64,000 nt of DNA from Botryllus schlosseri (GCA_051294905.1 CM119372.1:38132001-38196000); one strand, 5' to 3'. Counted from the stretch's first letter, positions 28,919-63,634 are shown. Notes: generated by a model not told the origin, from the letters alone. A program made the numbers and translations.

Positions 28919-29443
28919 AGTACCTTGTACCAGGGTTGTAATGACTCGAGTCATGACTCGACTCGAGTCAGACTCGAGTCACGATTATTTTATGACTCGA
29001 CTTGACTCGAGTCATTTTCTTGAAATGGGAAAATGACGCGACTCGACTCGAGTCAATATTTGGATTGACTCGACTTGTACTCGAGTCATTACGCATGACT
29101 CGACCCAAGTCATTGACTCGGCTTATTTTATATGACTTGAAGATGAAGAAATTTGCGAATCGTAATGGCTAGATCAACGCATCCGACGAATTCTGCCGAC
29201 ATCGCTATTTGTCACCACTGCTTTCGTTGCACTTGTCTGATATCAGATATGCCACCGTAAAAACAACAGAAAATGATACATAGTAGCAATAATGCATTGT
29301 AAAAAATCGTCCAGTGATGAAGAGGTAATAGATCCTCCGCAATTAAAGTACTCAAGACTTTTCAATTCTACAAGCAAACAATTGAAGCAAAGTTCAATTA
29401 GAGCCAATGAAATGACTCAGATGGTCAAGAGACTGATAAGCTC

Positions 29444-29660
29444 ATGTGTAGATTTGAAGGCGATGATTCTTTGCATTTTTGGGCGACTAGAAAGAATGAG
29501 TATTCAATGCTCTTCAGTGTCGTTCAAAAATGCTTGTCAATTCCTGCATCTAGTGCACTAGTGGAACGTGTATTCAGTAGATGTGGATTCATTCTACGGC
29601 CATGCCGCTTTAACATATCTGAGGATCTCCTTTCCACATTAGTATTTTGAGGTGTAACTC
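29444..29660 (+). pseudogene. hAT (Ac/ZBED1-like) transposase C-terminal dimerisation domain remnant
   Basis: DSLHFW...EYSML...CLSIPASSALVERVFSRCGFILRP.R..IS..LL.TLVF. Confidence 0.85.
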
Positions 29661-39447: not shown

Positions 39448-41019
39448 ATGTCTGTGGATGGAATGAACCTAATGGTTAGGTCGAAAGTGACGTACCAGAA
39501 TCAAGTTCTGAATCTAAACATCGACCCTGCCATTACACTTGACGATTTATGGATCAAGGTTCGGTTAGCGTGCCGATTCACAGACGCCCAGCTCTTCACT
39601 GTCAAATGGCTCGATGATGAAGGAGATCTTTGCACTGTATCTTCACAACTGGAATTGGACGAAGCTCTACGTCTGTACGAACTTAACGAGGATGACACTT
39701 TGTTTCTGCACATTTTTTCAGGCATTCCAGGAGAACCGGGCATGCAATGTCCCGGCGAGCATAAGATATACCGCCGTGGCGCTAGGCGATGGTACAAATT
39801 AAAAAGGCGCCTCAAAAAGTTGAAAGGACGCAGACAACGTATCCCAATCGTGAATCCACCTGATGATATGCCAGACCATGGTGATGATAGCTCAGCGCAC
39901 AGACCCCATTATAACCCAGCTACAGGCCTAGGAGGCGAGGTAGTACAAGGAACACCTAAAACGACACCTGGGTTTGGATTGATCGATTTTGAGATGTTAA
40001 GAGTCATCGGACGCGGGTCTTACGCCAAAGTTTTGCTTGTGAGTTTGAAGAAGAACAAAAAGCTATACGCGATGAAGGTTATCAAAAAAGAGTTGGTGAC
40101 AGATGAAGAAGATGTGGATTGGGTACAAACGGAAAAACATGTCTTCGAAACTGCTTCGAATCACCCGTTTCTCGTCGGATTACACTCTTGCTTTCAAACT
40201 CGCGAACGCCTTTTCTTTGTGATCGAGTTTGTTAATGGCGGCGATCTTATGTTTCACATGCAGAGGCAGCGTAAACTGCCAGAGGACCACGCAAGATTTT
40301 ACGCGGCCGAAATCATACTCGCACTGCATTTCCTGCACGAAAAAGGCATCATTTACCGCGATTTGAAGCTCGACAATGTCCTGCTCGATAGCGACGGTCA
40401 TATCAAGCTCACCGATTATGGGATGTGCAAGGAAGGGATCTTAAAAGGCGACACTACATCTACGTTTTGCGGTACGCCAAATTATATTGCGCCGGAGATA
40501 TTAAGAGGTGAAGACTACAGTTTTTCAGTCGATTGGTGGGCTTTGGGAGTGCTGATGTTTGAAATGATGGCCGGCAGAAGCCCGTTTGATATTATAGGCA
40601 TGACCGACAATCCAGATCAAAACACGGAAGATTACCTCTTTCAAGTGATACTGGAAAAAGTGATCAGAATCCCGAGGTCGTTGTCGGTAAAAGCTTCATC
40701 CGTTTTGAAAGGTTTTCTAAACAAAATGCCAATGGAACGCCTTGGATGCCATCCGGAGACGGGATTTCAAGATATAATCGATCATGCCTTCTTTAAAACC
40801 GTAGACTGGGACACACTACAAGCCAGACAGGTGATACCCCCCTACAAACCTCCGATTACAGACGAGTATGGTTTAGAAAATTTCGACGCTCAATTTACGG
40901 AGGAACCGGTCCAGCTTACGCCTACAAGTCCGCGTACGATATCGAAAATCGACCAGGGCGAGTTCGAAGGGTTCGAGTATATCAACCCGCTTCTCATGAC
41001 CAGTGCGGATGCGGTCTGA
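39448..41019 (+). CDS. PRKCI: Atypical protein kinase C (iota/zeta type), 523 aa, intronless, no C1 domain
   Basis: PB1 (KWLDDEGD), pseudosubstrate IYRRGARRW, kinase GRGSYAKV / YRDLKLDN / DYG / TFCGTPNY, hydrophobic motif [12 protein letters not shown]-terminal PDZ-type ending ADAV. Confidence 0.96.
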
Positions 41020-41121
41020 TCTACTGATGTGGAACTCAATGCTTTGATAGTGGTAAAAGTGTGGCTATATATTGTCGCTGTGGGATCGAATCGTCTCTGC
41101 TTCATGGAACAGAATTTGCAA

Positions 41122-41681
41122 TTGAATAGTATATTGATATTGAAATGAACCCGAGTATTTTCGGCTGTCACTCGTCAGGGGTAATCGTCAGCAACTAGTA
41201 GAGAATTCGAAAGAACAGCGTATATCAACAATCGTATCACAAAATATGACGTCACCAGCATGAAATGTCTAATACGAGAGCGTTCAATGTACTATTTTTA
41301 GATGATACACGAACTCTTTCTGTTGACACATCCTTGGCTGGTGTATTTTGATAAAAGTCGACTCCAAGGCACACAAATGAAAGTGTGAACGACCCTTTCC
41401 GAGTATGCGAAATCTGTCCTCTCGATAATTTTTTGCACAGGCGGGATTATCCAATAAGTGTTGCCCAATGCAGAATTTACGGCCTTTGATTGTTCCGCAT
41501 CAATCTTGAGCGGATGAGTTAAGGTTGAGCTTTTCGCCGAGTGTGTTCTAATGAATCTAGGTACATGTAGATTTATGGGTTCCTGCAAGTTCTCGTTTTT
41601 GACATTTCATGCTGGTGACATCATATTTTGTGATACGATTGTTGATATACGATGTTTTTTTAAATCTCTACTAGTTGCTGA
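41122..41681. mobile_element. Inverted-repeat MITE downstream of aPKC (family also at 38480-38740, 44328-44462, 51580-51872)
   Basis: 41188-41270 and 41600-41681 are inverted arms (TCAGCAACTAGTAGAG...CAGCATGAAATGTC). Confidence 0.75.
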
Positions 41682-44560
41682 GAAGCTGGAGAAGAATTTG
41701 TAAAGAAGCAAGATCTGATCACTAAAGTAATAATAACTTCATTTTTACAAAGACTCTAATGTGCTAATCTGGTTTCTACGTAATAGTTTCCTTCTGTTTA
41801 TCGCCTTCTAAAAAACGGTACACCCCCTCCACCCCCACCCCACCCGGGGCTTGAGAATACCCTAAAGAGACTGAATCTAAATAATGAAATGCTATTGATA
41901 CATTGAAGTGCTTAGTTGCCTGTAGAATCATTCACTGCGTTGTAAGTGTAGCTGGTAGACTGGTCAATTCCTCTAGTAGGTCTGGTTAAATTCAGTCTGT
42001 TTAGTAAAACCAATTTTACAACCTTTAGAAAACATTTCGGGCAGGCATGTAGCGACTAGAGATTCAAGATTCAATTCCCTTCTTTGACTATCAATGTTAT
42101 GTCACCTTTTGGATGGTGATATCTCATTGAAGCTTTGTATCATTTCGGTTAATACAAGTATGTTGACCTAAAATCATACTCTCTCTACATGTTGATTTTT
42201 TTATTCTATTATTTTAATAAATTCTCCATGTTTTGGTGAACTGCAGATGGCTTGGTCAGAAATATAGATACTGTTTCGTTGATCTCCGTTCAATATGACA
42301 CATTGCTGGCCGTGATGTTCATGTTGACTTTATTTCTTGAATCTGCGTTATGTAATGCAAATAATACCCGCAAAGTCTATTAGTCAGTGCCAGAGACTGT
42401 ATTATTAACTTGTACGCTTACGTTTACACTTTTTTGACCATTGCCCACACGCTTATATATCAATTTTCATTAACGCTGTACTACATCTTGTTTTTCTGCG
42501 TGCATTCCGTATGGAAGCATTGTAATAACTGATATATTATGTTACTATGTACGCACCCTATGGCATGCATGGCTGATACTTGATTTGATGCTAATATATG
42601 AAGGTATTTAGCATCTGACTACCGATATCCTTTCAGTGACAGTGTGCTATTTCGATCGTGTGGAATAATTGATATTGTTACCTTTACCCCGCAAATCATT
42701 CTGTTGCAGTTTCTTCTATTTCGTTGCTATTAGCTTGTAACGGTTACGTGAACGCGGACGTTGATATATCTCTCACCCTTCATCTGTCCGAAATTTGGTT
42801 CTATAGTCCTTTTTGCTATTTTTACATTGATTTTAATTCCCACTGCCGAGACACTGGTGGCAATTGTATTGTGGGAAACTAGCCTTGTATGACCCGATTT
42901 TTCGGTCTCTGCTGGTATATTTAGTCGAAATATGCTATTGCAACGCTAGAAGTACCGCTTACTAACTCAGTGTCGTGAGTTCATATATTATGTCTTACTC
43001 AAAAGATGCCTTACCACTTATATGCTCTGTTATTTCTAAGTTAAAATACTCACAACGTTATTTTTGAATCTTCAGTGAATGATTGAATTTGTATTTTCAC
43101 TTTAGATGAAGCGTTTGAATGGTAGTGTATTATAGTGGGATATCATTGATTGTGAAGCAGCCGTTTGAGAAGAAGGTAAGGAATTTCTCTAAGTTTTACC
43201 TCACTTTATGGCCTATTCATCGCTAGTTGCTATTAAAAGTGTCAATGCTTGTGTATCCGGTGGAGAACTGTACTTAGTATAAAGATATTTTATCATTGGT
43301 CCGTGGTACGATACCTGTTGTGAAGGCTCATTTGGTCTGGTTGATATGAAAATTTCACTCGCAAAAATAGTGATAATTCCACTCGCAAGTGACACAAACC
43401 AATCCATAAACCACATTCTGCTATTCATAGTACGAAAAAGTAGTTGTGCGTCAGCAGCTCTTCAAGTGAAAGTGCCCTGAAAACAAAATATGGTCAGTAA
43501 CGAGAGAGCTCGGATTAGAGCTGCACAGTTTTCGTATTAAATGTTGCAATCACAATTATACCTACATTTTAAATCATAAACTACATTACAATTGGAATTT
43601 ACACCAGCAGTTTTTATCACAAATTACATACTTAACATATTTTGAAAATTACAACACGGACAGGACAGTTCTTTCCCAAATAAGGTTAGAATTGGTATGA
43701 TAACGACGATTTTTACAAAATTGGATTACGATTAGAATTGCTTAATTCGTCAAAACTTATCATTGAATGAGATTCATAATTGGGAAATAGTGCGGCAAAA
43801 ATCGCGCTCGGTTCGTAACAAGTCGGAGTTTGTTATCAAAGTTTGCTGTGAAGCTCTGCGACGAAGAGCCATGGTAGGCCTATGCCGAACTATTAGCATT
43901 AGGTAGGTCACGATAGTAGCTTTGCAAAACGCCTCGATTTTTTCTTGATTTGCTACAGATTTGTCATACAAAAATTAGATTTATAATGAATCACTGTAGC
44001 GAAATTGTGCGATGGACAAATATACTGGAGGGGGACCAGGTAAAATCAAAATTTACCAATTAACTGTTATTTTATCAGAGAGATAAGGCCATTAAGTAAG
44101 TGCAAAGGCACTATGTTGATACTTCAGACCGAAAAAAAGGCAGCGTGTACGGTTTTATAACTACTTCCATTGGTACTTGACCGTTGGCGTAATTTTAGTC
44201 AAAACTACGCCTAGAATACTCTCTTTTCAGTTGTTCGGGAATCGCTACCTTTACTCGTACTTCGGTATTGATTTAATTGAGTTTGGAAAATGGTTGCCTT
44301 GACCTCCTCCGCTGAAAACATAGCCGCTTGAAATAAACACGACTATTTTCTGCTGAAACTTGCCAGCTGTGGTCTAATCGTTGTAACTAGCAGGGAATTG
44401 GAAAAAAATTGTCTATCAACAATCGTAGCACTAAATATGATTGACATTACCGGCATGAAAATGAATGAATATGGATATATTGTTGAAGTGTACTTCCGTT
44501 ACCTCAATTATCCAGGTCATAAATGACTTGGTTCCATATGTTACAGAACTCTGGGGCACC

Positions 44561-46773
44561 ATGGCTCTGAACTCGGAGACGTACCAAGAATTTCAGAGGC
44601 AGCTCGAACTGCAGCAGAAGTCAGACGCAGAATCGGCGACGGGAAAACCAAAAGTCAAAGTGGATGAAGATGGTACGGAATACGAATGGGACGCAGAGAA
44701 AAAGGCCTGGTTCCCAAAGTTCAACGTGGACATACTCATGAAATATCAGGGCAATTACGGACCGGTTGACCAATCTGAAACGGAACAGACTTACGTCGAC
44801 CCTGTGACGAAAGTCACATTTTTGTGGGACCTCAAGAAAAATTGTTGGGCACCGAAACCCAACGAGGACGGGACACCGTGCAGGTACACCCACGCGAACG
44901 GCACTGCGTACGTTTGGAATTTGGAGAAGAACAATTGGGAACTAGAATCTAAAGGCGAGGACTCCGACCAAAAGCCTAATTCAAGTCACGTGTACACCGA
45001 TCCTAAATCGGGGGTCGAATACAAATGGGACCCGGACAGGAACTTATGGGTGGCTGAAGACGGGAAAGTCATGTACCCCTACGCCCACAATGCCATCGGC
45101 GGAACGTCGTACACGGACCCCAAATCTGGGGTTATTTACAATTGGGACAAGGACAAAAACGAGTGGGTTGCCGATAAGCACGCCAGAAATAACAAGAGCA
45201 AAAAAAGTAAAAAAGAAGCCCCGAAAAGGAAGGCTGCCGAACCCACGTGGTTTGACCCGTCGCAGGTAATGTCATGTATGAATTCGTATCGAGTATTAGT
45301 CGTGGAGTATGCACATTGTCATTTTACAACATGATTGATGTGAAAAGTTCGAATGTGCGCCTTTTATGCAACCCGTGAAGATTCCCAATTGAGTGATTGT
45401 TCTGATGCTGATACTGATTCTGATGCTGTGTCAAACTGGGGGGCGTGACAGCATCTGAAGGAGGGGAGCGAAACTGTCTGAGAGAAATCATGTTTCTTGT
45501 ACTCAGAATCAGTTTAATTTGTGTCCAAACCTCCAAGTTTCAACAACGGCAATAACACTAAATATATTACGATTTTGAATGTCATTAATGCGTAGTACCA
45601 TCCATAAACAGATGCTAGATTTTGGCTAATAACGGACCTTGCACTGATCGGAAGAGGTCTCTGAATTTAGATCAACTGGTGAATGCGTGTAGCTGTTGGC
45701 TTATGATTATATGGCGTGTCTGTCAAGCATCTGTACAGAGTGACAGAATGACTCTGACTCGAGTCAAAACTCTATGACTCATCACTCTACTAGCTGACTT
45801 CGACTCAGACTTGACTCGGTGGCGAATTGAAAATGACTGGACTTCACTCGAGTCGAAACTATAGAAGTGAGATTGACTTGTGACTCGGAACCTTATCACT
45901 TGGTCACAACCCTGGTGCCCAGGCTGAGTTATGAGGCCTACCACAAATTTGCGCATACTCTTTAGACCTCATTGGTTGACTAAATAAATATCTCTCTTTC
46001 AGGTTAACAATACCAACGTCTACGTACAAGGGCTGCCTACCGACGTGACCATGGACGAATTCGAAGCCCTCATGTCGAAATGCGGTATCATCATGACCAA
46101 TCCTCACACGGGCAAGCCCAAACTCAAACTCTACAAAGACAAAGACGGCAATTTAAAAGGCGACGGACTTTGCTGTTACTTGAAAAGCGAGTCTCTAGAC
46201 CTGGCTTTACAGCTTTTGGATGAGTCTGACGTCAGGAACTGTAAAATATCCGTTCAAAAAGCTAATTTCGAGTTGAAAGGCTCGTACGATCCCAGTAAGA
46301 AACCGAAAATGTTAAGTAAAAAGGAGAAAGTGAAAATTCGGAAACAACACGAAACCATGTTGGACTGGCGCCTGGCCCGAAAGGAAGCTGCCAAAAAGAG
46401 CGAGCGGGTCATCATCTTTAAGAACATGTTTGACCCGAAAGAATTCGACCAGGACGCAACCCTTATCACGGACATTCGCGACGATCTTAGAACAGAGTGT
46501 GAAAAATTTGGGCCTGTCAAAAAGGTGTTGGTTTTCGACAGACACCCGGACGGGGTGTGTTCGGTCGCGTTTAAAGACTTTGACGGGGCCACGGCTTGCG
46601 TCGGGGCAATGAACGGGCGGTGGTTTGCGGAGAAGAAGGTGGAGTGTGCCCCGTGGGATGGTGTGACGGATTATCAGGTCGAAGAGACCGATAGGGAAAG
46701 GGAGGAGAGGTTGGACAATTGGGAGAAGTTCCTTAACGAGGCAGACGATAAGGAGCCGGACCAGCCAACGTGA
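44561..46773 (+). CDS. HTATSF1: HIV Tat-specific factor 1 homolog (U2 snRNP factor), 2 coding exons, 491 aa
   Basis: Exons 44561-45265 and 46003-46773 joined by a phase-0 GT-AG intron (CAG|GTAATG ... TCTCTTTCAG|G); GTEYEWDAEKKAWFPK, RRM NTNVYVQGLP...KGDGLCCYLK, UHM IIFKNMF...ECEKFG...MNGRWF. Confidence 0.94.
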
Positions 46774-46815
46774 CACGATTCTAGTGATGATTGCGCCGGG
46801 CGCGAGGGTCGTTAG

Positions 46816-48486
46816 CAGGGTTGTTATGACTCGAGTGTCTCAATCTTTTGTTCACTAGACTTGACTCGAGTCATATTCTTAAAAATGGAGAATGACTCAA
46901 CTCAGTCGATCTGTGTATGGAATTGTGTTTGAATCACTGCTTATGACATGACGGAGTCTTATGGCTCGGCACAGGCGTGTGGCCAGGGGAGTGCCGGGGC
47001 TCAAAACCCCTTCATTTTGAAATGCAAAACCCCGTCCTTTCCCGCTGGGTTAATATCGCGTCTTGGGCCTAGCATGCTGTGGCACCTATCTCGCGATGGC
47101 TTGGAGACAATGCCGTTACTTGTATGCTGATCAGCGACTGTGATTAGGGCTGGGCACAATGATTCGAGTACTCGAATCTGAATCGAGTAGTAATTTTAAT
47201 GATTCGAGTCGAGTAGTAAAAGACGATTTTTTCGAGTACTGAAATTATACGGTCCTCGCAACTGAAAGTCAATTTACTGACGAGAATTATAGTTTTGATA
47301 TTATTTTCCACTGAGGAAGCCGTGAAACCTTGATTGGCCGTGTTACAGCACACCAGGCACAGTTTAAAGCTACGAACGTTACTGGAAATAACACATTTCC
47401 GAAGTCATTATCATCCACCAAAATTGTTATGAAGTGCAATGAAATCGGTATGGTCGAAAAAATACCAAAGTATCTTTAATGTGATGGATAACAGGCATTA
47501 CGTTCTTTGTGGTGGCATAAAAGGTTCATATTTGGACTTCGACATAGTACATCCTGTTGTGACGTCATAATGAGTGATACTCGATTACTCGACTCGCGAA
47601 GCATATTACGTGATTCAGAATCGAATCACTCAGGTACTCGATTTTGCCCAGCCCTAACTGTGATCAAGGAGTGACATCGCCAAACTGAATGACATCGCAA
47701 GTCCGCAAACATGTGCGACATGTGTGCGTACATGCGTATTTCTTTTCTGCTAATGCTTGAACATAACCATCGGAAGTCGTACGTGTCAAGGCTTGAGTTA
47801 TAAAAGATGGGAAAGGTTTACACCACTTGAAATCAATGTCATTATAAGACAGATTCCGTAACAACTGAGAAATTTTGAAATGCGCAAATCGACAATGAGG
47901 CTGCGTAATACGCTTTGATAAGCGCGGGTATTTAATTATTCACGAGAGATCATGCACTCGCTAATTGACAGCAGTTCTGGACTTGTTGGGCTGGCTTATA
48001 TGCGTAAGTTCGTCAATACCAGGAGATTGTATAATCATCATTTACACATGCACTTAACAGTAATGAATTGATGCGTTATTAGTAAAATCGAAAAAAAATC
48101 GAAACCCCAGCTTTTATTTCAAACCCCCACACCGTCATTTTTCGGCTGGCTACGCGCCTATATCGGCACATTCTATATGATTCGACAATTCTCGTATTAT
48201 CAGGACCAATGGTCATAAATTAGCTACCGAAACTGTCTTTTATATGCTTAAATAAGCATGTTTAGACTGTAAAAGATGAGTGCATTGTAAATCCGAGGCC
48301 TTCGATATCTCCCAAAAGTTTCACAGAAGCCTATTGAACATGACTTGAACTCGATATTGAACAGGAAACATTATGACTCAGACTCAGTCTTAACACCATT
48401 ACTTGTACTTGGATTTCACTCCGGTGAATTGAAAATGACTCCAGTCATAACTATAAAAGTCAAATTGTGATTTGGTTACAACCCTG
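46816..48486. mobile_element. GACTCGAGTC-family hAT copy with two nested MITEs (46972-48160 and 47145-47656)
   Basis: Outer TIR CAGGGTTGT/ACAACCCTG with TSD GTCGTTAG/GCCGTTTG; middle CAGGCGTGTGGCCAG/CTGGCTACGCGCCTA; inner TAGGGCTGGGCA/TGCCCAGCCCTA with perfect TSD ACTGTGAT. Confidence 0.85.
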
Positions 48487-49717
48487 GCCGTTTGTAGGCA
48501 TGATGCTTGGGGTGTTGTTGTCCGGTTTGAGTATTAATTGGGATTTGCGGCAAGTGGGAATAATCGTACGCTGCTTTCCCTTATTATAGGTTGTTCGATC
48601 TGAGTACCGGAGTTGGTTTTGGTTGGTCTGTGTGTCTACCGGTGCCTACTGTCCCTGCGGTTTTCACATGGTCTGTCCATCAACTGCAAGGTGCGTTTTA
48701 CCTCGTTAAAGTCGTTGATGATGTCGCAGTTGGGATGATGAAATGATGGATCACGCATTTCACCAATTTGCAGAACACTTTCCAGCAAACGATCCATTCG
48801 TTAACTCTTGTCTGATGTTGAGGCGGTGAAGTCATGTCCATTCATTTATTAAAAACGTAAATAACGCTAGACTGCTATTGCACGCATTGCATATTTACTG
48901 GGTCTAACATTTGTTGCGATATCACATTAACACTGCTGTCAGCCTTGATTTTGATCAAGCATTGACCGAAACCCAGTTCGATCCGAGTTGACAATACGAC
49001 GTCGTTTATTGTGCATTGTTTGAAGTGAAAATCACATCACTCTTTCGTAGCATAGTGATCCGTTAATGTAAGGGTTACTCATAGTTTAGCTTCTAAAATT
49101 AGCAAATCATTGACCCTTTATTATCAAGTAGGGAAAAAAACGAGTAGTCGTGTACCACCTATTATGACACCGTACCAGCCTAAGTGCTTTATCTATCATA
49201 TATGTGATCCTGTCGTATGGGGCACATTTTGTGATTCTTGACCTTGTCAAGTATAGCCAACTGCGGCTGGGCTAGATCAATCCAGAACCGAAATGGCATT
49301 TCCATGAATATTACAGGCCTTTTTTTAATATGCGAAATGCTCTGGATGCTGGGTTACGACAGAGTGAGGTTTCAAGGCGCCCACGTTGTAAAGAGAGTAT
49401 CAAAACTATATATTTTCGTTACGATATTACTTTTGATGTGAAGTCGCATAATTTGAGTAGAAAAAAAATCCACACTCATTACTGACTTGAAGAATCGTTG
49501 TGCCCAGCCACTATTTCATGTATTGTGTATAACAACTCAATATCTGCAGCATTTTTTATACGTCGATGTCGCAGTTTCTCCCAATATTTTTCGGCACCGA
49601 TGTCCACATGGAAAATGCAATTCTATTCCAAGATCTCCTTCTCTTTTACAGGGTTCTCTTGTAGTCGATTAGGGTAACGTAATTACCGCCTAAGAGTGCG
49701 CGCACCATTCCGAAGAC

Positions 49718-51400: not shown

Positions 51401-54400
51401 CGGAATCCCTGCAGCCAATTCGAAGTGTCCGGCGTGTGACTCGCTTGTTGATCAACTGTGCCAAGGTGGCGAGTCACAGGGCCGGACATCATCGGGGTAT
51501 CTGGGTCATTCGATTCCGAGTCCAGTGTTCGAGCACCACCTATTTTGACGCCGTATCATGACTCCTGGAGATACAGAACTTCAATATACACTTGAAATAC
51601 ATCTGGATATTTTCGGCTGGCGCTTGTCAAGACTAAGCGTCTGTAACTACTGTTGATTTCAAAAGAGTCGGGAGTTGCACTGGTATCAGTTTGTGTATAA
51701 TCTGCCATGTCTTTCACCTCTAAAATTCAAAATTTCGAAGCGGGTAACATGATTATTCGGTGATGCCACTGTTTATCGACAAAGCTCTTTAGAAATCTCT
51801 ACTGACGATTACCCCTGGCGAGTGTCAGACGAATGTATTCGGGTTTATTTCAGTATGTTTATATTATTCAATGGTATAATGACTTGAAGGGTTCAAATGT
51901 GGTATGTATTTTTCTACGAAACGATGTCGGCGATCCAAAATAATGATGGTGGTATTTCTGGGACACCATTTCGTAGCGCTTTTTGTTGATAAAATGTTAC
52001 CCTTGGTTTGAATGCGGATATTTTCTTTACTCGCGAAAAATGACTCAAACCATTACAATCAAGACTCGACTCTGAGACGGGTACTAGAATCTTTGTTCCC
52101 GGCACTACTCATCATCTCGATATGTAGGCTACGGTCCGACTTTCGTGGCTGCGAACGTCGATTTCATTTTGTCTGATCTTTTTGGCTGAGTGCAATGCAT
52201 TTCAAGTACAATGCTCACTTTTTCTGTCAAAATTAGTAAAAAATGATCTAGTAAGCTGCTTAAGATACCAATTCAAAATTGCTGCTCTTCAAAATGTATA
52301 TAAATGTCATCAATTCAAGTACAAGGGCATTTTATAAACTCCACAAACATGTACTCCTTACCAACTCGTGCTTTGACATTGAAAGCTTTGATAAAGACGA
52401 ATCTCCTTTCTCGTTCAGACCGCCTTCTGCCCATGCAAATATCATACGAGACGAATAGCCTTGAATATTTGCTTGTGAGAATGTGGTACTTTTAGCTACG
52501 GAATTGTAATTTTGCCCTGTTTGTTACTTATAAATACCAGTTGTACCGACCTAAACTAATCATGTTGCGAACAATTGATACTGTGTCACAATTTGGCATA
52601 ACATACCATGCCAGCCCTATGGTCTTGTCCTTCCCAATCATGCATTGAAAATTGTACTGAAGCAAAATACCTTATTCCAATAATCCGTCGGTGCTAATCT
52701 TGTATAATACAAACTATGCCTTTTGCAGTTCAAATTCTATATTCGATTCAATTTATGGCACAACGCGGTCTTTCGTTGTATAAGGAATTCAATGTGATTC
52801 GAATTCTTGCCTAATCACATGTTATCCTTGGATTGGCAATTTCCGTTTATTTGCAATAACATGGTTGATTGTATTGGTGATTTGGCTGCTTTGTAAAGGG
52901 TTTCACATGATTTTTTGGCATTATTGATGTTTAAAACGAAGTAAATTTCATTGTGGTAATTTTTCATTGTAATTTTTCATCATCAATACCAATTTGCAAG
53001 ATATTCTGTTGAGTTTGTTTTTCAATTTTCCGTCTATTGCTGCTGTTATTTTGGTTTGTAAGTTGTTGGAATCTGCACCATTCATGAGTACTTGAACAAT
53101 AATTGATGTGTTTTCTGTAGTGTTGATCATAAGAATTATTCCATTGGTATGGAAAGCTGCATTTCAACAAGAAATTGTTGGAGCGTGTGAGTTTTGAATA
53201 TATTTTATTATATACGAAGCTCGACTATGGCTAATTGGCTATTTCGTGCTGCTTATACCTGACTGATGGTTCTTCCAATTGCGTCTTTCGAACTTTAGTG
53301 AATCCCAAACGATATGGCCCAAACATTTAAAATCGCGATAACATTGACAAATATTAATATCATAGTCAAAAGGAGCTGCATGCACAAAACATGACTCTCT
53401 CAATATTTGCAGGGAGTTAATCGAAGTATTGGAATTTGCTGCTCTAGAGTAATGTACAAGGCACGTCTTTGAAAAGCATACAGGCTACATTAGCATTCAG
53501 CAACTAGTGTCTCACTACACTTGTAATGAAAAGTACATAACTATGGGTTAACTACCTACCATATCGTTGATTGAGAGTTACAGATTTTTTTGTTTTATAA
53601 AATGTTGGTAAGTTATTGGTTTAGATTTGTGAAGAATGTTTTTCTGTGCCTTCAGGTCACATTTTAATATCATTATGCAGGCGTACTCTTGCATTGACTA
53701 TTTATTAGAATTGTTGTGCCATTCGCGTTGATATTCCTTTGCTGCTTGCTACGGTTTTGAGTATCTGAAGTTCTGAGCTCTCTGCATGCCACAGTTATTC
53801 ATCTTATGCTCAATTGCATTGGCGCTGGTTTCAGTCACAGGCCCAACCTGATTTGATTTACTACAATAGCTTTATCCATTATGAAATTTTACCTTCATAA
53901 TATTGGCGTATTAAGCACAACTACTGCACCACAGGACTTGGCGGCTCCGCGCTAAGTTTTCTTTGGGGTAGAGCCTGCTGGTAATTAAGCAGCATCCCTG
54001 TGTATAGGATCTATTTTGGCCTCAACTTCCAGGAAAAATAGTTCATATTGGCATTCGGAAGTATTATGGTACCGGTTTTGGCTTCTTCAAATTTATAAAT
54101 CTTCGAACAGCGACAATTCTTATGTATCCAATAAGACGTTTTGCAAATGCTGGATTGCGGTATGTAATTTTTTTTTCAATTTTGAACGCAATTAATTGAT
54201 GCCGTCATGATGGTAAAATGGCACTATGTTCTCCAGCCATAGGATTAGATTTCCATCCATCGCTTGCCAGTTGTGTTCTGGACTCCCCCACGCTAGCATG
54301 CCATACATACAAATACAAATATCCGCCCTTTTTAACGAAATATGAATGCCAAGCCCTTGCGTGGTAAAGTTGAAACAGCCAGAACCCGTTTCATATCGGT

Positions 54401-54672
54401 CTCTATGTTGTTAGTGACAGATTTGTGGCGAAGTGTTGGACCTGGGGCCGCATAGTATTGAAATCATGCAATACGTTGTGATGTGAAAGTTTACTGGCAA
54501 TTTACGATTTCATCTCATGCGAGTGTATATCTACTGCGTGTTTTCTCGTTTGATCTTCGAATTTCGAAGTAGGCTTACCGAATATCGTGTCAAATCTGAC
54601 AGTAGTGGTTTAATCGCGAATAATGTGTGATTTTTGTTTTCGGGCTAGTGTCAAATCTAATCTATTTAAAAC

Positions 54673-55590
54673 ATGGCTCCTCTGGATTTGGATCGTATGA
54701 TCGAGGTGGAACGCGAGTGCAAATACTTGCCCGAGAACGACTTGAAGAAACTATGCGATTACGTTTGCGATTTGCTGTTGGAAGAATCCAACGTGCAGCC
54801 CGTATCTTCGCCAGTTACTGTGTGCGGGGATATACACGGGCAGTTCTACGATCTCCTCGAACTGTTCAGGACGGGGGGTGAAGTGCCGGAAACCAACTAC
54901 ATATTTATGGGAGATTTTGTGGACCGCGGATACTTCAGTTTGGAAACGTTTACTTATCTGCTCACTTTGAAAGCGAAATATCCGGATAAAATCACACTGT
55001 TGAGAGGTAATCACGAGAGCAGGCAAATTACGCAGGTGTACGGTTTTTACGACGAATGTCAAATGAAGTATGGCAACGCTAACGCTTGGCGTTACTGCAC
55101 CAAAGTGTTTGATTTGCTTACTGTCGCCGCTATCATCGATTCTTGTGTGTTATGCGTACACGGTGGTTTATCCCCCGACGTGAAAACCTTGGATCAGATA
55201 CGTACCATCGATCGTCAACAAGAGATTCCCCACAAAGGAGCGTTCTGCGATTTGGTTTGGTCCGACCCTGAAGACGTGGAAACCTGGGCTATCAGCCCTC
55301 GCGGCGCAGGCTGGCTGTTTGGAGCTAAAGTCACGAACGAATTCGTTCACCTCAATAATCTACGGCTGATTTGCCGCGCGCACCAGCTGGTTCACGAAGG
55401 ATACAAGTACATGTTCGATGAGAAGTTGGTTACCGTTTGGTCGGCGCCGAACTATTGTTACCGCTGCGGTAATATCGCTTCGATTTTGGTGATACGCTCG
55501 TCAGACGACAGGGAAGCGAAGCTGTTTCGCGCCGTTCCGGATAACATGAGGGTCATACCGCCTAGGAACACGGCACCATACTTTTTGTAG
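54673..55590 (+). CDS. PPP6C: Serine/threonine protein phosphatase 6 catalytic subunit, 305 aa, intronless
   Basis: MAPLDLD N-terminus, GDIHG, GDFVDRG, RGNHE, SAPNYC, C-terminal PYFL. Confidence 0.98.
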
Positions 55591-56719
55591 AGGGCATTGT
55601 GGCATTCAGAAGTATATTTATAAACCGTAATCGATCTCGCGAGGCCAGACACAGGCCGTGGATTTATCGCGCGTACAGGCCAACGCGATGGTGTTGACTA
55701 GGGCTGACCAAAATTGAGTACCTGAGCTGAATATTAAGCTTCCTGTATCACATACTGCGACGCTTTAACAGTAAGCCAGTAACAATGACTTGAAAAGTTG
55801 AGACATGTGATAATGATACGTCTCTTTTTTAAGGAAACAAGGACAATGATGCCAGTTACATGTCATCCAAATTAATTTGTATTTCATAGCGCCTTGTGTC
55901 TGTGTATAATGTATATTTGTAGCCTTGTGCAAGAAACATGCATTCGCTAACTGAGGTTTTGAGGCCTCGAAAGTATAGATAAAGCATTGAGAAATACATA
56001 TTCCATCCCTAGCGGTTATATCAAGGCTGGATTTCCGCTGTAATTCTACTTTTTGGACTGTGCTGATACGAGGTTGGCAGAAAATCTGTGTCGGAACTGT
56101 AGGCTACCTGCCGCGATACAGGATCGACATTAATTGCATGTCGACAGCTCATTCTTGTGTAAAGCTTGTTGCGATATATTTCACTCGTCATTTATTTTAT
56201 TTTTGTTGCGTATCTATTCAAGTTTGGTGTTTGACCAAATCGATACGTAATGATTCGTGCGATTATCGCCTTGATTCTAAAATGCTTCATAATTCACAAT
56301 GGGTTTGTGAGCTGTTATTTCTTATGGCGATGATAAATGCATACGACATTGACTATCCTTTGCATCGTCTTAGTTTCGAGGGTTGTCATTTAAGAAACAA
56401 AGCTTAGTAGGCAGGTTGGTTGGCATCACACGCGGACTATTGTCGGAGTATGATGTAATCTGAGTTTCTTAAATGAAAGGAGTGAAGGCAAGGCCATAAT
56501 ATATAAATGAGTATCAGGGCGGAGTGGAAATAACTTTATTTTTCAAATCGAAAGAAGGGGGTCCATAAATCCAAACAAATGACCTGAAACTTCAATAAAA
56601 ATTGAATTTTCCAGTTATCAACCCCCAATTTCTGCGTAACACGGGGTAAAATTGGCCGTCTCGACAACCACTGGTTGTACATGTACATTGTACAACAGTC
56701 ATAATATATAGCTCAAAAG

Positions 56720-56880
56720 CTTCCAAAACATCATTTTCTATCTGGAAAAAGCAAGCGACTAAGATGGGATGACATGTCATGGAAGGCGATATCAAAAGGT
56801 CAGGTCGTGGTCCGGTAATCTTGATGGCGGGCTAGTATTCATGTAGTAGAAATTGCTTGTAGTTCGACTTGAAGTCAGTT
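56720..56880 (-). mobile_element. CR1/L2-like LINE 3' fragment
   Basis: Minus strand FKSNYKQFLLHEY* followed by the shared CAAGATTACCGGACCACGACCTGACC motif. Confidence 0.65.
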
Positions 56881-57402
56881 TTTCGGCGATCCTTCAAACG
56901 TCGTTTCTTGTCTTATCTTCCGCTTTATTTATTTGAGTACGTTCTTCGTCGGGCGTCTTTTCAGGGCTTTTTTTGTCGCCGTAAGCATGACGACAAGAGG
57001 AGTCCAGATAAAACGGGTCGCGACGCAGAATTGAAACCATCTCGCCTGCGTAGTGGTGACACTTTTACCAATGTCAAATTGGGTTTGCTCTCTAGAAAGT
57101 ATGCGAACCACTGCTTAAAAGCTACGAAATGAATGTAGTACACAGTGTTCATAAATTCATTATCCGTAAGATAAAAATCCCTAATTTTACTACATAATAA
57201 ATGTGACGACAAATCATCGAACCGTCACGCCGACAACAAATGCACATCGCAGTGCACATGAATGACATGCTTGATGAGTGATGTGTCTGCTGACTCTGCT
57301 GTCTGATATCGTAGCGCTTTTTGCCAAAATGAACCGTAAATATGTGATGTGATCAGGAAGTTGAAGTATATAGAGAATAGTAATAGAGCGATACAGTTGA
57401 GA

Positions 57403-58977
57403 ATGATCCTTAAATATAGTTTGGACGTTATCATTCCGTTGCGTGCGCTGCTCCGATTACAGTCCTACGCTGTAAAACGCAACGTCAGGTCGAATGTTCC
57501 GAGGAGAATTCCATGGTGTATGTCATCTCACAGCTACTACACGGATCGTTACGATCCAAAAGATGACGACTATGAGATCGATTACTATTCTACCGAAGCG
57601 ACAAAACCGGGATCACTAAGACTTGGAGATCATAATGTTTTTGTATTGCAACCAATTATTCTCGGGAGCAAAAGGTCGCCTATTTTGTCCGACACTTCGG
57701 CTGAATTGCAACTGGCAGAATCTGTTGCATTGGTAGACTGTATTCCGGACTGGAACGTGACTGGGACGTTGATTCTTTCGACTTCAACACCCACAGAAAG
57801 GAGTATTTTCAGAGGAGAAAGGTTAAAAAGACTATGTCACGCTATAGCCTCTAATCAAGAAACGTCTGCCATATTTTTAAGCATGGACCGCATCAACTTA
57901 CTTCAAAGACAAGTACTGACGAAAGCTACAAATATTGACAATATCTTTGATAGATACACTCTGGTGTTGGAAATATTCCGTTTGAGAGCACAAACGAAAC
58001 AAGCTAAGTTACAAGTGGCGTTGGCGGAAATACCGTATGTGCGCGCCAATCTCAAATCTGAAATCACAACGTACAACAGACAAGGCGGTGGTCCACGCGG
58101 CGTTGGACCAGGAGAAAAGGCGTCTGAATTGTTGTTAAGACGATTTCGTTCCCGTGAACAAAAGATTAGAAGCAAACTTGAGCTGTTACGTAAAAGGCGG
58201 ACACAACAGAGGGAAGTTCGAAAACGTTCACAACTCCCCATCGTAGCTGTTGTCGGGTACACCAATGCAGGTAAAACCACTCTCATCAAGGCACTTACAA
58301 AATCCGAAAGACTATCTCCAAAAGACCAATTGTTCGCAACACTAGACGTAACCACGCACGCGGCCGTAACAAACCAAAACATGAAATACCTTTTAGTCGA
58401 CACCGTCGGATTCTTGTCAAACTTACCGCATTCGTTGATAGACGCATTTTCGGCCACTATGGAAGATATGCTTCAAGCTGATATTATTTTACATGTATGT
58501 GATATTAGCCATCCAGATTATCAAAACCAAAGAGTTAACGTACACAGAGTACTGCAAGATCTTAAATTACCGGATAATTTAAGGTTAAATATGATCGAGG
58601 TACAGAATAAGATTGATTTGCTTGATCAGAATGACCAACAAGATGGCGTGTCCTCGGGTTATACAAATTTTGCAAATGGTAACAAGAATGTACTCTGTGA
58701 ACCATCGAAAGTATGTTCCATTTCTTGCACTTCGGGTATAGGACTTGATTATCTTGATGATATACTGCATGATAGTATCGTTCAAATCACTGGTGGGCGA
58801 ACAATCAAAGTTAAGGTGCCGGCTTCCGGAGACCATCTTAATTGGTTTGAGGAGTATGCGACTGTTTCATCCTACTACGTTGAGGGTGATTATCATTTTA
58901 TTATTGAAGTTACAATATCGAAAGGCATGTGGAACAAGTTTAAAGCCAGATATTATGATTACGAAGTGGTTCAATGA
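57403..58977 (+). CDS. GTPBP6: HflX-family GTPase GTPBP6, 524 aa from the first ATG, intronless
   Basis: FDRYTLVLEIF..RAQTKQAKLQVALAE, G1 GYTNAGKT, LFATLD, DTVG, NKID; basic N-terminus compatible with mitochondrial targeting. Confidence 0.93.
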   Translation: MILKYSLDVIIPLRALLRLQSYAVKRNVRSNVPRRIPWCMSSHSYYTDRYDPKDDDYEIDYYSTEATKPGSLRLGDHNVFVLQPIILGSKRSPILSDTSAELQLAESVALVDCIPDWNVTGTLILSTSTPTERSIFRGERLKRLCHAIASNQETSAIFLSMDRINLLQRQVLTKATNIDNIFDRYTLVLEIFRLRAQTKQAKLQVALAEIPYVRANLKSEITTYNRQGGGPRGVGPGEKASELLLRRFRSREQKIRSKLELLRKRRTQQREVRKRSQLPIVAVVGYTNAGKTTLIKALTKSERLSPKDQLFATLDVTTHAAVTNQNMKYLLVDTVGFLSNLPHSLIDAFSATMEDMLQADIILHVCDISHPDYQNQRVNVHRVLQDLKLPDNLRLNMIEVQNKIDLLDQNDQQDGVSSGYTNFANGNKNVLCEPSKVCSISCTSGIGLDYLDDILHDSIVQITGGRTIKVKVPASGDHLNWFEEYATVSSYYVEGDYHFIIEVTISKGMWNKFKARYYDYEVVQ

Positions 58978-59170
58978 TACTACGTGTTTGCTTGTACACT
59001 TGTGTTTTCAATTCCATATCACTGTTCATGGTCTTTGTAAGCTGATTAAGTAGAAGTATCAAAATCAGTTTGAAAATTGAATCTTGCCAAGTCATTTCTT
59101 GTCGGATGCTTTATGCTGAATGTTAACTGGGGATATTAACACACAGTTGTTGTAATGTAATGGTCTAATT

Positions 59171-60499
59171 CAGTGGTTCCCAACGTGGGCGATATCGCCC
59201 CCCAGTGGGCGATTTGTCGGTCCAGGGGGGCGAAAATAGCCAAGGGGGCGATAGGGGGGCGAAAATGGACGAAGGGGGCGATGGCGCATTGAAATGCTGT
59301 ATTGGCGTTCATGACCGTAACTGTCACACCCAACCTCCCAATTGGGATGGGGGGCCCGAGCTCGAAGGGGTCTCATAATTTTTTTGTGAATTAATATTAA
59401 TTATAGAGTAATATTTTAGAAATTTAGGCAAATTTTTCAAAAAATTCTCGCGCTGCGCGCCATTTTCTGGTCGCTTATTTCTTGCTTATTGGATACCCTT
59501 CCTTCAAGAAATTATACGCATGAGTTATAGAAATGGGCATCTCGGCGTCAGCCATTATCACACCATGACGCACCAAGACATATGAAGTTTTGGGTCATGT
59601 AACATGCGACTCAGAGAAAGAGTGCCAGAACGAGAAAACCTTGGCGGAAAAAGACTGCTTTTAGGCTGACCGACTTCAATATATATATACGATGTACATA
59701 TATATTTATTCGCCCATAGGCGCCTAAATGACTGGCGCCCAATGTTCCTGTCCTGGCAATCAGAATCCCACAAAAAAATGCCATCTCGCAGAGAAAAATT
59801 AATTGCCAGTGCAGAAATACCAATTTGAAATCGTGTGCATCTTTTAGTTTAGTACGCATTGGCGATTTGAATATCTTTCAACATAGCAGACAGGCCACGA
59901 AATATCATTACGTAACGAAGTCATTATACCCACGGGTCCGCCCGAATATGTTCAATTATTGTTTACGGGCCCTACATTTTCCAAGACACCTCACTCGGCT
60001 TTACCGGTATATCTGAATACATGAGCAGAGAGAGATAAAAATTGAAAGCAATATCTATGCAATTCCCAATCATATTGACCGATCCAATCATGAATGGTTG
60101 AAATTTGAAATAACTAAAGAGTTCAACAATTTGCGCTAAGAAGTAGCGGTAAAGAGGTATCGGTGGAGTTGGGTCTGAGGGGTGCAGAAGTTTGCTTTAT
60201 CACCCTATGGAGGGGGGTCAAGACCAACGCATTGGGGGGGGGGGGGGGGGTGACGAACTTTTGTTACGATCCTTTTGGAATCAAGTCGGAGAAACCACCT
60301 TTTAGTTAGCGAACTCACCAACATTCAGTTGGAAAAGTGTAATTTCGAGGTCGAGCCGAGAAGTTGACCTTTTTTCTTAGTCAAATCGCCGGTGATTTCA
60401 GAATTTATGCCCATTTTTTGGTTCCCAATATTTGCGGGGCGATGATCGGTGTGGAGTTTGAAAAGGGGGCGATGAGTCGAAAAAGGTTGGGAACCACTG
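59171..60499. mobile_element. Buster-type hAT MITE with composite cargo
   Basis: TIR CAGTGGTTCCCAAC/GTTGGGAACCACTG; perfect TSD GTCTAATT; interior homologous to 33474-34800. Confidence 0.9.
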
Positions 60500-60992
60500 G
60501 TCTAATTTGTAGAACTACTCAAACTACTTTTTGAAATCTAGATTGCTACTTGTACTTAGCTCTTAGAATATATAATTTGAGTAATATTGGAGTGGAATTT
60601 TAAAGTGCTTCTTCCACTTGGGTGCCATCAGTAACTATCTTCGAAAGAGGTATTCTGGACTCAAATTAGTAAAAATCAATTCTGCATCATCTTAAATACA
60701 TTCATGCCTTTGTTTGCCTCTGGTTCCCACTATGATTGAAGTCTTCAAGCGATACACCTAATCTTAAAAGAAAACATCCTGATTTATATAATGAATTTCG
60801 ATCATAATTTGGTTCTGACATAACTGAATTGCATTAGATTCAAGTCTTGTGGGTATCTTGACCGTAAATCTGTTATTTCTGAATTGATGCACTCCTCATT
60901 TTTGCACTTTTCCACATGCTTCAATGTTGCCATTTCAAATTTACCCCGCTGTGAATTCATTTATTGGATATCTAGGTGTTAATATATTAGCA

Positions 60993-61823
60993 ATGTCTTC
61001 TGCTACGTACGACGATACATTCGGATCATACCAGCTCGCATCCCACGACCCGCTTATCGGACTGAAACGCTCAAAATGTAAAAAATGCAACTGCTCCAGG
61101 ATGTACTTCTGCTACAAATGTCACACGTATGTTGATAGCGTGGACGAAGCAAAGATGCCTAAGATGGAACTACCTTGGAAGGTCGACGTTATAAAGCATG
61201 CGAAGGAAGTGGATGGAAAAAGCACAGCTATACACGCCGCCCTGCTGGCTCCAGATCATGTCAAAATATACACCTACCCTACTATTCCAAGCTACTCAAA
61301 AGAGGATAAAATTTTGCTTGTATTTCCTGACAAGAAAGCATCAACGATGGAGGAAGTTTTCGGCGGAAGTAGTGCTGCGCCTGGAAGCAAAAGAAAGAAT
61401 GATACAGATGTCTCTGATGTTTCACCAAAACGCATCAAAAGCGACAGTGTCAATAAAAGTGTCATTAAATCGGCAGAGGAGGATTTTAAAAAAACAAAAT
61501 TGTCTGACTTCGATAAAATTGTCTTTATCGACTGCACTTGGAGTCAGGCGTACGGCATTTTTACGGACGAAAGAATTCGAAATCTTCCTACTGTGAAGCT
61601 AAGCGATCAGAACACAGTGTATTGGCGCCATAACGACGAAATGCCATTCACGTTTCTGGCCACGATTGAAGCTATTTATTCCTTCCTGAAAGTTAGTCAC
61701 GAACTGGCCTGCGGAGAGTATGACGGCAGATATGACAACATGCTGTACTTTTACAGTTACTTTTATAAATTGGTGCAGAACGGGGCTCAGAAAACGAAGC
61801 AGAAATTGAAAAAGGAAAAGTAG
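60993..61823 (+). CDS. DTWD1: tRNA-uridine aminocarboxypropyltransferase 1 (DTW domain protein 1), 276 aa, intronless
   Basis: RSKCKKCNCSRMYFCYKC zinc motif, KHAKEVDGKSTAIHA, FIDCTW, LATIEAIY, YDNMLYFY. Start at 60993 is inferred; the in-frame ATG at 60924 is possible. Confidence 0.93.
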   Translation: MSSATYDDTFGSYQLASHDPLIGLKRSKCKKCNCSRMYFCYKCHTYVDSVDEAKMPKMELPWKVDVIKHAKEVDGKSTAIHAALLAPDHVKIYTYPTIPSYSKEDKILLVFPDKKASTMEEVFGGSSAAPGSKRKNDTDVSDVSPKRIKSDSVNKSVIKSAEEDFKKTKLSDFDKIVFIDCTWSQAYGIFTDERIRNLPTVKLSDQNTVYWRHNDEMPFTFLATIEAIYSFLKVSHELACGEYDGRYDNMLYFYSYFYKLVQNGAQKTKQKLKKEK

Positions 61824-62271
61824 GCATGCACCGATACGGGGTCTCTAAAGCTCATAATGCTCAAAGCTATAAATCCAATAATGTCGTGTAATGAGCCGCT
61901 TAGAAACTGCCCTTTTCATGGATGAATTGGGACAGAAAATACCTCGGTCAAAATCTGCGTATACTTGAGCCTGCTACTTTTAATGTTGCTTTTCAACGCG
62001 AAAAAGCATTTTTACAAATTAGGGATGTGGTCTTTAACTCGGAGGACTTGTACGTCAACTTGTTAGAGCACTCGAGTGTGAATGCTTTTGTAGCTTTGAT
62101 TGAATATTTTCATAAGATTTTATGTCACGATGCTGTCATTATATGTTACTATCATCTTGATACTTTCAGGTGACTATCATGCCTGTAACACTGAAAAATG
62201 TTTTCATTGTTAAAATTTCAGGATTGTTTGACATAAACTAATCTGAACTGTGAATTTCATCACTATTAGGG

Positions 62272-62651
62272 CTGTGGTTCTCAAACTGGGGGACGTGAAA
62301 GTATCTGAAAGGGGGTATGAAGTCGCCTGAGGGGCATGAAGTTTGTTGAACTCGGAATGAGTTTGATTAGCGCTGACGCTTCTAAGTCTCAAAAGCAGCA
62401 ACGATCCTCATTATATTACAATTTGAAATGTATGCTGCGACATTTGCGATATACATCCAACTCATGACTATTGCTCCATGCGCAGTCTGAAAGTCGTATT
62501 TGAGAGTTCTCTCGAAATGCTTAACTACGCGTTGGGATTGTAGACTTTCTGTTGATCCAGTTTAATGATTTTTTAGACATGACGATAAATGGAGCGCAAA
62601 ATTTTTCACTGTCTTAAAGGGGGTGTGTCTAAAAAAGTTTGAGAACCACTG
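62272..62651. mobile_element. Degraded Buster-type hAT MITE
   Basis: CTGTGGTTCTCAAACT/AGTTTGAGAACCACTG; TSD not preserved. Confidence 0.65.
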
Positions 62652-62977
62652 GTTTTGAGAATGTAATAGATATTCCGTACTGTCGTTTGAAAAAAAGTAA
62701 TTAACACATTACTATATTTGCACATAAATGTTATGTACCATGGAACTTGAATCTACATGAGGAAATCTATAGGACTTTCGTCAATCATGATACAATACAG
62801 GAACTGTCAATGTTACCAATATGACCATAGGCGTAATTCTTTTCGTCTTACGTACTAGAAATAGGCGAATTCCTGTGGAATGCCAATTTTTTTGTGCATT
62901 ACAGATCAAATACTTTCTATTGCAGATTTCTATGTAGCGATATCTGACTATATTTTCACTAGTCACTCATTTCCGAG

Positions 62978-63634
62978 ATGTGTACAGTCTTGCTAAGATG
63001 CACAGCACGGATTACTGGTTACTATTCGTTACGACATAATGCCTTGAAAGCTACGATCAGGGCAAAGTCTGTGAAATCGTTAGAACGATACATCAAAGAA
63101 AAGCAGCTACCGGTTGGTGACCACGGTGAATACGTGACTATCTACAATTACAAATACATAAAGCCGATCGCTATGCTGTCCAGAATGAAAGTGTCGCAAA
63201 CCATACTGTTTACTATTGTGTGCGCTGGAGCATGGACTTGTAATATACTCGGAGACGGTTTCGGCCAAAATGCGATGATTTGCGTTTCAGTAGGTGCCGC
63301 TCTCTCAATCACAGTTCTTTTTATGATCGCCCATTTTTCGAGGAGGCTTATCGGCATCGTCTGGTACGATCGGACAAGCATGAACGTGAAAATTGCGCAT
63401 TTGACATTCTGGGGCCGTAGGAAAGACACGGTTCACCCGATCTTGTCTCTGTCCGAAGCCGGAGACTTCAAAGAGGACTCAAGAAATCTATTCTTGAAAA
63501 TTAAAGTGCGCGGCAGCGAGCGATATTACTACTACAGTGTGCGACGTGGCGCTGTCGTCGAGAAACCAAAAACGTTTGTGCATGTGTTCGGTAGAACTCC
63601 GTATAATTTATATAAATTGTACAATAATCTTTGA
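62978..63634 (+). CDS. TMEM186: Transmembrane protein 186 (mitochondrial, TMEM70/186/223 family), 218 aa, intronless
   Basis: IYNYKYI...LSRMKVSQT, two hydrophobic helices, FSRRLIGIVWY...VKIAHLTFWGRRKD, F..VFG. Confidence 0.9.
   Translation: MCTVLLRCTARITGYYSLRHNALKATIRAKSVKSLERYIKEKQLPVGDHGEYVTIYNYKYIKPIAMLSRMKVSQTILFTIVCAGAWTCNILGDGFGQNAMICVSVGAALSITVLFMIAHFSRRLIGIVWYDRTSMNVKIAHLTFWGRRKDTVHPILSLSEAGDFKEDSRNLFLKIKVRGSERYYYYSVRRGAVVEKPKTFVHVFGRTPYNLYKLYNNL

Follow-up and report, generated by a model that had tools for sequence, protein, structure and literature searches.

A same-strand run of seven housekeeping genes in Botryllus schlosseri, six of them without coding introns, as a possible operon built piecemeal

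How do seven unrelated housekeeping genes come to stand in a row on one strand with almost no introns? The question is raised by a stretch of 64,000 nucleotides (nt) of Botryllus schlosseri DNA (GCA_051294905.1 CM119372.1:38132001-38196000), here called the window, in which aPKC, HTATSF1, RRN3, PPP6C, GTPBP6, DTWD1 and a TMEM186-like gene lie head to tail. The obtained results confirmed this layout: all seven + strand open reading frames (ORFs) are intact, six have no coding intron, and the block holds one coding intron in total. The original prediction, made from the sequence alone, had described this arrangement, which ORFs, Pfam domains and RNA joints and contigs bore out. It had explained the block by wholesale intron loss, through either serial retrocopy landing in one transcription unit or reverse transcription of a polycistronic precursor, an interpretation that was partly supported. 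Transcription certainly continues without interruption from HTATSF1 into RRN3 and as far as the PPP6C acceptor, and a shared transcription unit for HTATSF1, RRN3 and PPP6C is supported. Whether the block is a Ciona-type operon, assembled bit by bit after its lineage had parted from that of Ciona, through intron-free copies that borrowed upstream transcription, stands in our judgement at about even chances. The coding regions are as follows.

39448-41019, + strand: aPKC coding sequence, 523 residues, no introns; PB1 and kinase domains without C1 (Pfam, alignment)
44561-46773, + strand: HTATSF1, ORF open from 44465, ATG at 44561, last coding exon ending at 46773 (Pfam, human match, RNA)
49718-51400, + strand: RRN3 coding sequence, 560 residues, no introns (Pfam, RNA, named homologues)
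54673-55590, + strand: PPP6C coding sequence, 305 residues, no introns (Pfam, RNA, PP2A-family match)
57403-58977, + strand: GTPBP6 coding sequence, 524 residues, no introns; RNA contig from 57312 (Pfam, homologues)
60993-61823, + strand: DTWD1 coding sequence, ORF open from 60924, no introns (Pfam, RNA)
62978-63634, + strand: TMEM186-like coding sequence, 218 residues, no introns (Pfam); candidate acceptors ending at 62904 and 62925

In gene order, Pfam gave PB1 and kinase, RRM, RRN3, metallophosphatase, HflX-type GTPase, DTW and TMEM70/186/223 domains. The names aPKC, RRN3 and GTPBP6 are also backed by named homologues, and human HTATSF1 matches the second gene (E 9e-90). The phosphatase belongs to the PP2A family by homology, with no PP6 chain among the matches listed; from its motifs we take it to be PP6, just as we take the last two genes to be DTWD1 rather than DTWD2 and TMEM186 rather than TMEM70 or TMEM223. 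An AG ending at 60975 makes 60993 the probable start of DTWD1. The aPKC protein is 86% identical to that of Styela clava, 76% to Clavelina, 74% to Phallusia and 73% to Ciona, and GTPBP6 is nearest to S. clava (57% identity). Alignments of aPKC with S. clava (one gap) and of TMEM186 with a relative, P0319 (no gaps), were both collinear. Minus-strand ORFs beginning with ATG between block genes measured 71-159 residues; this ORF scan, which included no Pfam scan of the minus-strand frames, found no opposite-strand gene between block members. The RRN3 homology search returned no named tunicate among 75 matches, an exact-sequence lookup gave no match for five window proteins, and Rfam had no match at gathering score over the 64 kb window.

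Transcription was followed in four of the 24 runs listed: bulk RNA (X24), single-cell RNA (X22), contigs (X2) and DNA contigs (X1). The comparison covered 43030-63029, with aPKC and most of TMEM186 outside. We treated X2 as RNA because both HTATSF1 splice joints are present in it. HTATSF1 is divided as follows, UTR denoting an untranslated region.

43106-43175, + strand: non-coding 5' exon; an RNA contig begins at about 43108-43110
43176-44546, + strand: 5'-UTR intron, 1,371 nt, GT..AG (RNA joint)
44547-45265, + strand: exon 2, with the ATG at 44561 (RNA)
45266-46002, + strand: coding intron, the only one of the block, 737 nt, GT..AG, phase 0 (RNA)
46003-46773, + strand: last coding exon, with RRM and UHM (Pfam, human match)

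The joint of the 5'-UTR intron (43173-44545, cut +2) was present in X24 and X2 and absent from X1. That of the coding intron (45262-46000, cut +3) appeared in 10 reads of X24, one contig of X2 and nothing in X1. The original prediction was thus right about the single coding intron and had missed the one in the 5' UTR, whose presence sets the start of the protein at the ATG at 44561 and not at the ORF start at 44465. Joint-free X2 contigs spanned 47632-49679, 49826-54648, 54671-56268, 57312-59198 and 61037-62503, with a further contig at 46422-47168. These covered all of PPP6C and GTPBP6, RRN3 from position 49826 onwards and DTWD1 from 61037 onwards; the four coding sequences are therefore intronless in RNA where covered. 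In the N-terminal part of HTATSF1 (44640-45180), a short aromatic repeat (Y..W...K..W) occurs several times and has no significant Pfam match.

Continuous RNA covers two of the six block boundaries, through two spacers.

46774-49651, + strand: transcribed spacer of 2.9 kb, likely the HTATSF1 3' UTR, ending at the RRN3 acceptor
51401-54648, + strand: transcribed spacer of 3.2 kb, likely the RRN3 3' UTR, ending at the PPP6C candidate acceptor

Both spacers are present as stable RNA. In X2, four unique spacer bins reached depths of 76-81, about 80 times the 0.98 of the intron bin 43697-44363; X1 had a depth of 13-17 in the same five bins, giving X2/X1 ratios of 4.8-5.2 in the spacers versus 0.07 in the intron. 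Single-cell reads in unique bins fell on one strand only (21.4, 7.86, 69.4 and 3.25 versus 0). The RRN3 acceptor, ctcttttacAG ending at 49651, is strong and unpaired, with 14 of 15 pyrimidines, and the candidate acceptor of PPP6C is an AG ending at 54648. Piles of X22 reads sit 125-190 nt upstream of these two acceptors, with depths of 71 at 49457 and 52 at 49509 before RRN3, and of 15, 18 and 37 at 54398, 54402 and 54524 before PPP6C, where depth is 0 at 54649. If X22 is a 3'-end library, the upstream mRNAs would end at or near the acceptor of the next gene. Such an end fits HTATSF1-RRN3 and RRN3-PPP6C to about 150 nt and fails at PPP6C-GTPBP6, where RNA is interrupted. No AATAAA or ATTAAA occurs within 800 nt upstream of acceptors 49651 and 54648; counted upstream from acceptors 43105, 49651 and 54648, the nearest poly(A) hexamers are at distances of 889, 803 and 5,800 nt, respectively. 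The contig 47632-49679 crosses the RRN3 acceptor and stops where the last 31-mer holding base 49649 ends (a word length of 31 being assumed); a branch at the acceptor AG would leave such an end.

The remaining boundaries were less continuous, and their features are listed here.

41020-43105, + strand: spacer after aPKC, with AATAAA at 42216 and a candidate acceptor AG ending at 43105; last 76 nt compared with RNA
55591-56620, + strand: PPP6C 3' UTR, probably ending at about 56350-56620; AATAAA at 56594
57037-57311, no strand: RNA gap before GTPBP6, X2 depth zero
59171-60499, no strand: inverted-repeat element in the GTPBP6-DTWD1 spacer, with an 8-bp target duplication, presumably hAT-like

The single transcription unit of the original prediction is supported by RNA for HTATSF1-RRN3-PPP6C and is not shown for all seven genes, depth being zero at 57037-57311. 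The bin containing this gap had a depth of 17.9, against 17.93 expected if depth is zero upstream of 57312. Before it, X22 depth reached 316 at 56191 and was down to 16 at 56330, a pile about 1 kb before GTPBP6; after it, the GTPBP6 contig starts at 57312, on an AG at 57313-57314. The gap reflects either a second promoter or a quickly degraded outron. Over the hAT-like element X1 depth exceeded 30,000, with loose ends at 60499; this element and other repeats therefore mask the RNA reading of the GTPBP6-DTWD1 boundary, and the DTWD1-TMEM186 boundary is also repeat-masked. GTPBP6, DTWD1 and TMEM186 may form a second unit. Separately, 84 bulk-RNA reads leave the window at 56985 (region 56900-57000) with a common tail (agreement 0.89), which suggests that a family of repeats or small RNAs is expressed from other genomic sites.

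The chance of such a run was estimated with rates borrowed from Ciona, which count whole single-exon transcripts and so understate coding-intronless genes. At the overall single-exon rate of 19.4% (computed from PMC2760879), six of seven intronless genes on one strand have a probability of 4.8e-6 per start, or about 0.12 such runs per genome with 25,000 starts assumed and genes taken as independent. At the Ciona operon rate of 38%, six of seven intronless genes come to 0.014 per seven-gene set. The original prediction had placed the novelty in the clustering and its mechanism; the clustering does not stand as new, as single-exon genes already make up 38% of Ciona operon genes versus 15% elsewhere, according to figures given in PMC2760879.

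Comparison with relatives illustrates how the block may have come together. The aPKC and GTPBP6 genes lie on contigs of unequal length in Ciona (6,976,749 versus 8,965,682 bp) and in Clavelina (28,789,166 versus 19,509,797 bp), each pair within the same accession series. Ciona aPKC (KH.C14.47, chromosome 14) and PPP6C (KH.C3.910, chromosome 3) are unlinked according to the supplement of PMC4528069. In Ciona and Clavelina, aPKC, PPP6C and GTPBP6 stand beside other genes or on other chromosomes, and the serial arrival that the original prediction had offered fits, as the tested genes are unlinked in both. The S. clava accessions of aPKC and GTPBP6 are 491 apart, which is compatible with one chromosome and is not evidence of adjacency.

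The supplement of PMC7986045 gives Ciona gene spans of 8,642 bp for aPKC and 1,155 bp for PPP6C, and lists both as receiving a leader and neither in its strict operon file. Ciona PPP6C is very probably intronless, because its 1,155-bp span holds a coding sequence of 918 nt, and Ciona aPKC very probably has introns, because one of two models carries an insert of 67 residues, absent from the other, with the look of intron sequence. At all 10 genomic loci chosen from other animals, aPKC was split into several blocks; together with the 8.6-kb Ciona gene, these loci give aPKC one mark of an orphan retrogene, coding introns missing where orthologues carry them. For the other block genes, too, orthologues are generally intron-rich. 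The original prediction had named orthologues that are intronless and unlinked as a counter-case, a state found for PPP6C and not for aPKC. For aPKC, the loss of introns apparently took place outside the Ciona line. The introns of the block genes thus probably disappeared at different dates, as two of the seven genes already indicate, a pattern that speaks for genes arriving piecemeal rather than for a polycistron reverse-transcribed once. The polycistronic route that the original prediction had also proposed does not fit the unequal Ciona spans of these two genes or the two introns that HTATSF1 retains. A metagenome scan with the tunicate aPKC alignment found another block gene in none of the 80 loci kept (94 confirmed) and the C1-less tunicate type in none of the 31 with a readable pseudosubstrate. 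Four contigs (L027, L047, L023 and L024) carry C1-bearing aPKC genes, some few-introned, that are not tunicate-type.

The aPKC of the block lacks C1 (window 39772-39850, residues ~109-134), as do all 12 tunicate-type sequences examined, among them Styela clava, Clavelina, Phallusia and two Ciona, while C1 is present in seven of seven full-length non-tunicate controls. As judged from sequence, one ancestral C1 exon seems to have been lost in tunicate aPKC, because the Phallusia junction KRFKKRPRIP and that of vertebrate isoform models that skip C1 (KRFNREPMMP) give a gap-free alignment. The idea that the C1-less aPKC derives from a retrocopied mRNA with a skipped exon was rejected: the junction fits, yet the Ciona gene is also C1-less and apparently intron-bearing. 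Our literature search on ascidian aPKC and the C1 domain found nothing, although older papers may mention it.

The reading that we favour, a Ciona-type operon assembled piecemeal, would work as follows. One promoter would drive a long pre-mRNA, a spliced leader would be joined at each unpaired AG, and each upstream mRNA would end at or near the next AG, so that the 2-3 kb spacers would be 3' UTRs. In a trans-splicing host, a promoterless retrocopy inserted into an outron or downstream of a transcribed gene would need just an AG for its expression, and loss of the parent could then fix it. Repeated landings of this kind would yield same-strand, abutting, intronless housekeeping genes. A more specific form of this proposal is possible and, taken as a whole, doubtful: outrons may have acted as retrocopy traps, in which processed copies of scattered styelid housekeeping genes landed serially in one transcribed unit and replaced their parents, giving a 24-kb seven-gene operon, equal in length to the longest predicted in Ciona, whose former outrons are now 3' UTRs of 2-3 kb.

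Several observations weigh against an assembled operon. Operon membership of the Ciona type is not proven, as no leader was read: the loose ends (24 of 2,644) and joints (15 of 452) displayed include none, and the start of the GTPBP6 contig carries no extra letters. X2 RNA is missing between PPP6C and GTPBP6, which speaks against a single seven-gene unit, and the AATAAA at 42216 could terminate the aPKC mRNA early. The branch at 49651 could equally arise by cis-splicing. The chemistry of X22 is not stated, and its piles would be 3' ends by supposition; the 70 reads piled up at 51858, within a repeat, may mark an RRN3 end that lies further upstream. A contig over two genes is no proof of one molecule, since overlapping ends also fuse, and X24 depth is low and uneven (0.14-1.3 over RRN3 versus 15-19 over PPP6C). 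The synteny argument draws on three of the seven genes, partly through contig sizes, and the block could be old and broken up in Ciona and Clavelina. No A-run longer than 8 and no retrocopy scar (poly(A) tail, target duplication or relic leader) was found, though scars decay with age; the Ciona leader gave 0 matches as a relic (1.77 expected), and the leader of this species may differ.

These points have to be set against what other explanations would predict. The genes might form an operon and yet have been gathered by DNA rearrangement, their introns lost separately, before the move or in place through cDNA recombination. PPP6C, already short and unlinked in Ciona, could have moved as DNA, HTATSF1 keeps its two introns within the block, in-place intron loss via spliced mRNA is discussed for tunicates in PMC4122922, and the scars expected of retrocopies were not found. 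Genes moved as DNA should nevertheless keep their introns and promoters, whereas six of the seven coding sequences here are intron-free, and the loss of every aPKC coding intron would suit one RNA-mediated step better; we consider gathering by rearrangement unlikely. Seven separate monocistronic genes, each with its own promoter and a long 3' UTR, among which read-through or overlapping ends mimic continuity, would explain the unseen leader, the RNA gap before GTPBP6 and the uneven X24 depths. There is a precedent in a Botryllus gene pair whose rare linking transcripts, which carry no leader, are judged read-through in PMC3691228, and Ciona aPKC and PPP6C are trans-spliced outside strict operons. 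Against independence stand spacer RNA in X2 as deep as coding RNA, piles that end at the following acceptor in both clean cases, with no poly(A) hexamer there, and the rarity of such runs by chance (about 0.12 per genome), which together leave separate units distinctly unlikely.

It is highly improbable, finally, that a cis-spliced polycistronic precursor was reverse-transcribed into the block in one piece. That event would account for common orientation and intron loss in one stroke, and remains of Pao/BEL, Gypsy-like and LINE reverse transcriptases lie just upstream. The precursor is, however, absent in Ciona and Clavelina, where the former also differs in the intron states of PPP6C and aPKC; two introns persist inside the block, and a 24-kb cDNA is far above the typical size of a retrocopy.

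The rest of the window holds a Hop/STI1-like gene and transposons. The Hop-like gene (3602-10338) has four exons by DP and TPR matches, with introns of ~2.4, 3.2 and 0.66 kb, in agreement with the three introns described in the original prediction. No later exon was found, with 0 TPR/STI1 matches in 124 + strand segments of at least 38 residues over 10.5-39.4 kb; the gene may be truncated, may have short or divergent exons, or may continue past the window, in which case the block would be nested in an intron. A near-complete Pao/BEL frame, a long terminal repeat (LTR) retrotransposon, occupies 18486-24695 (1,905 residues, one stop, then 163 residues in frame). It is followed by a Gypsy-like pol fragment (26254-28473), a hAT dimerisation fragment (29411-29647) and a LINE-type reverse transcriptase fragment (34695-35614), and a decayed piece near 13632-14125 resembles the Gypsy-like element.

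The layout itself will not surprise specialists, as ascidian operons and their excess of single-exon genes are already published. What is new here is that in Ciona the genes traced lie apart and outside operons, and that at least aPKC seemingly lost its introns later, so that genomes already available allow intron loss and operon birth to be ordered on the tunicate tree and the locus offers a test case for operon birth. Operons with kilobase 3' UTRs resemble ordinary spaced genes if they are judged by coding sequence alone. If outrons do trap retrocopies, this would explain the crowding of single-exon genes in the leading positions of ascidian operons, a matter that Satou 2008 (PMC2760879) did not settle: besides the single-exon shares of 38% and 15%, it gives 60% in first position and calls the significance 'not clear'. 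We found no paper on the locus or, judging by titles and abstract openings, on retrocopy-driven growth of ascidian operons; Kim 2014, Zeller 2010 and Gasparini and Shimeld 2011 may cover it.

Among known systems, the operons of Ciona are the first to compare. Ciona has 1,310 operons, the largest of six genes (Satou 2008, PMC2760879), and predicted ones reach seven (Wenzel 2021, PMC7986045), as stated in these sources. Its genes are precisely juxtaposed, and 16 of 18 cases have no poly(A) hexamer within 40 nt, according to Satou 2006 (PMC1488885). The block shares with them unrelated genes on the same strand, upstream RNA that reaches the next acceptor at two boundaries, many single-exon genes and no poly(A) hexamer before the next acceptor. 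It differs in its stop-to-acceptor spacers of 1.1-3.2 kb with transposon pieces, in showing no leader and continuity at two of six boundaries, and in that the two genes traced, aPKC and PPP6C, are neither operonic nor linked in Ciona.

Retrogene replacement is reported to be frequent in Ciona (Kim et al. 2014, Dev Genes Evol 224:255, through citations in PMC5803294 and PMC5408686) and, like the block, involves intronless housekeeping genes with intron-bearing orthologues. PPP6C looks like a shared case, whereas the intron loss of aPKC seems to lie outside the Ciona line. Operons of Oikopleura and chaetognaths, with up to 11 and 9 genes as reported in PMC4122922 and PMC12460157, likewise gather housekeeping genes in long same-strand units; unlike the block they are compact (cut-offs of 60 and 250 bp), and no excess of intronless genes is described in the available portions of these papers. 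In the RFC140-flp pair of Hydra, an intronless incoming gene is expressed from an upstream promoter via a trans-splice acceptor, as tested in transgenics according to PMC3273482. That case concerns one horizontally transferred gene behind a spacer of <417 nt and the block several native genes known from sequence and RNA alone, while the route of expression is the one proposed here for the block.

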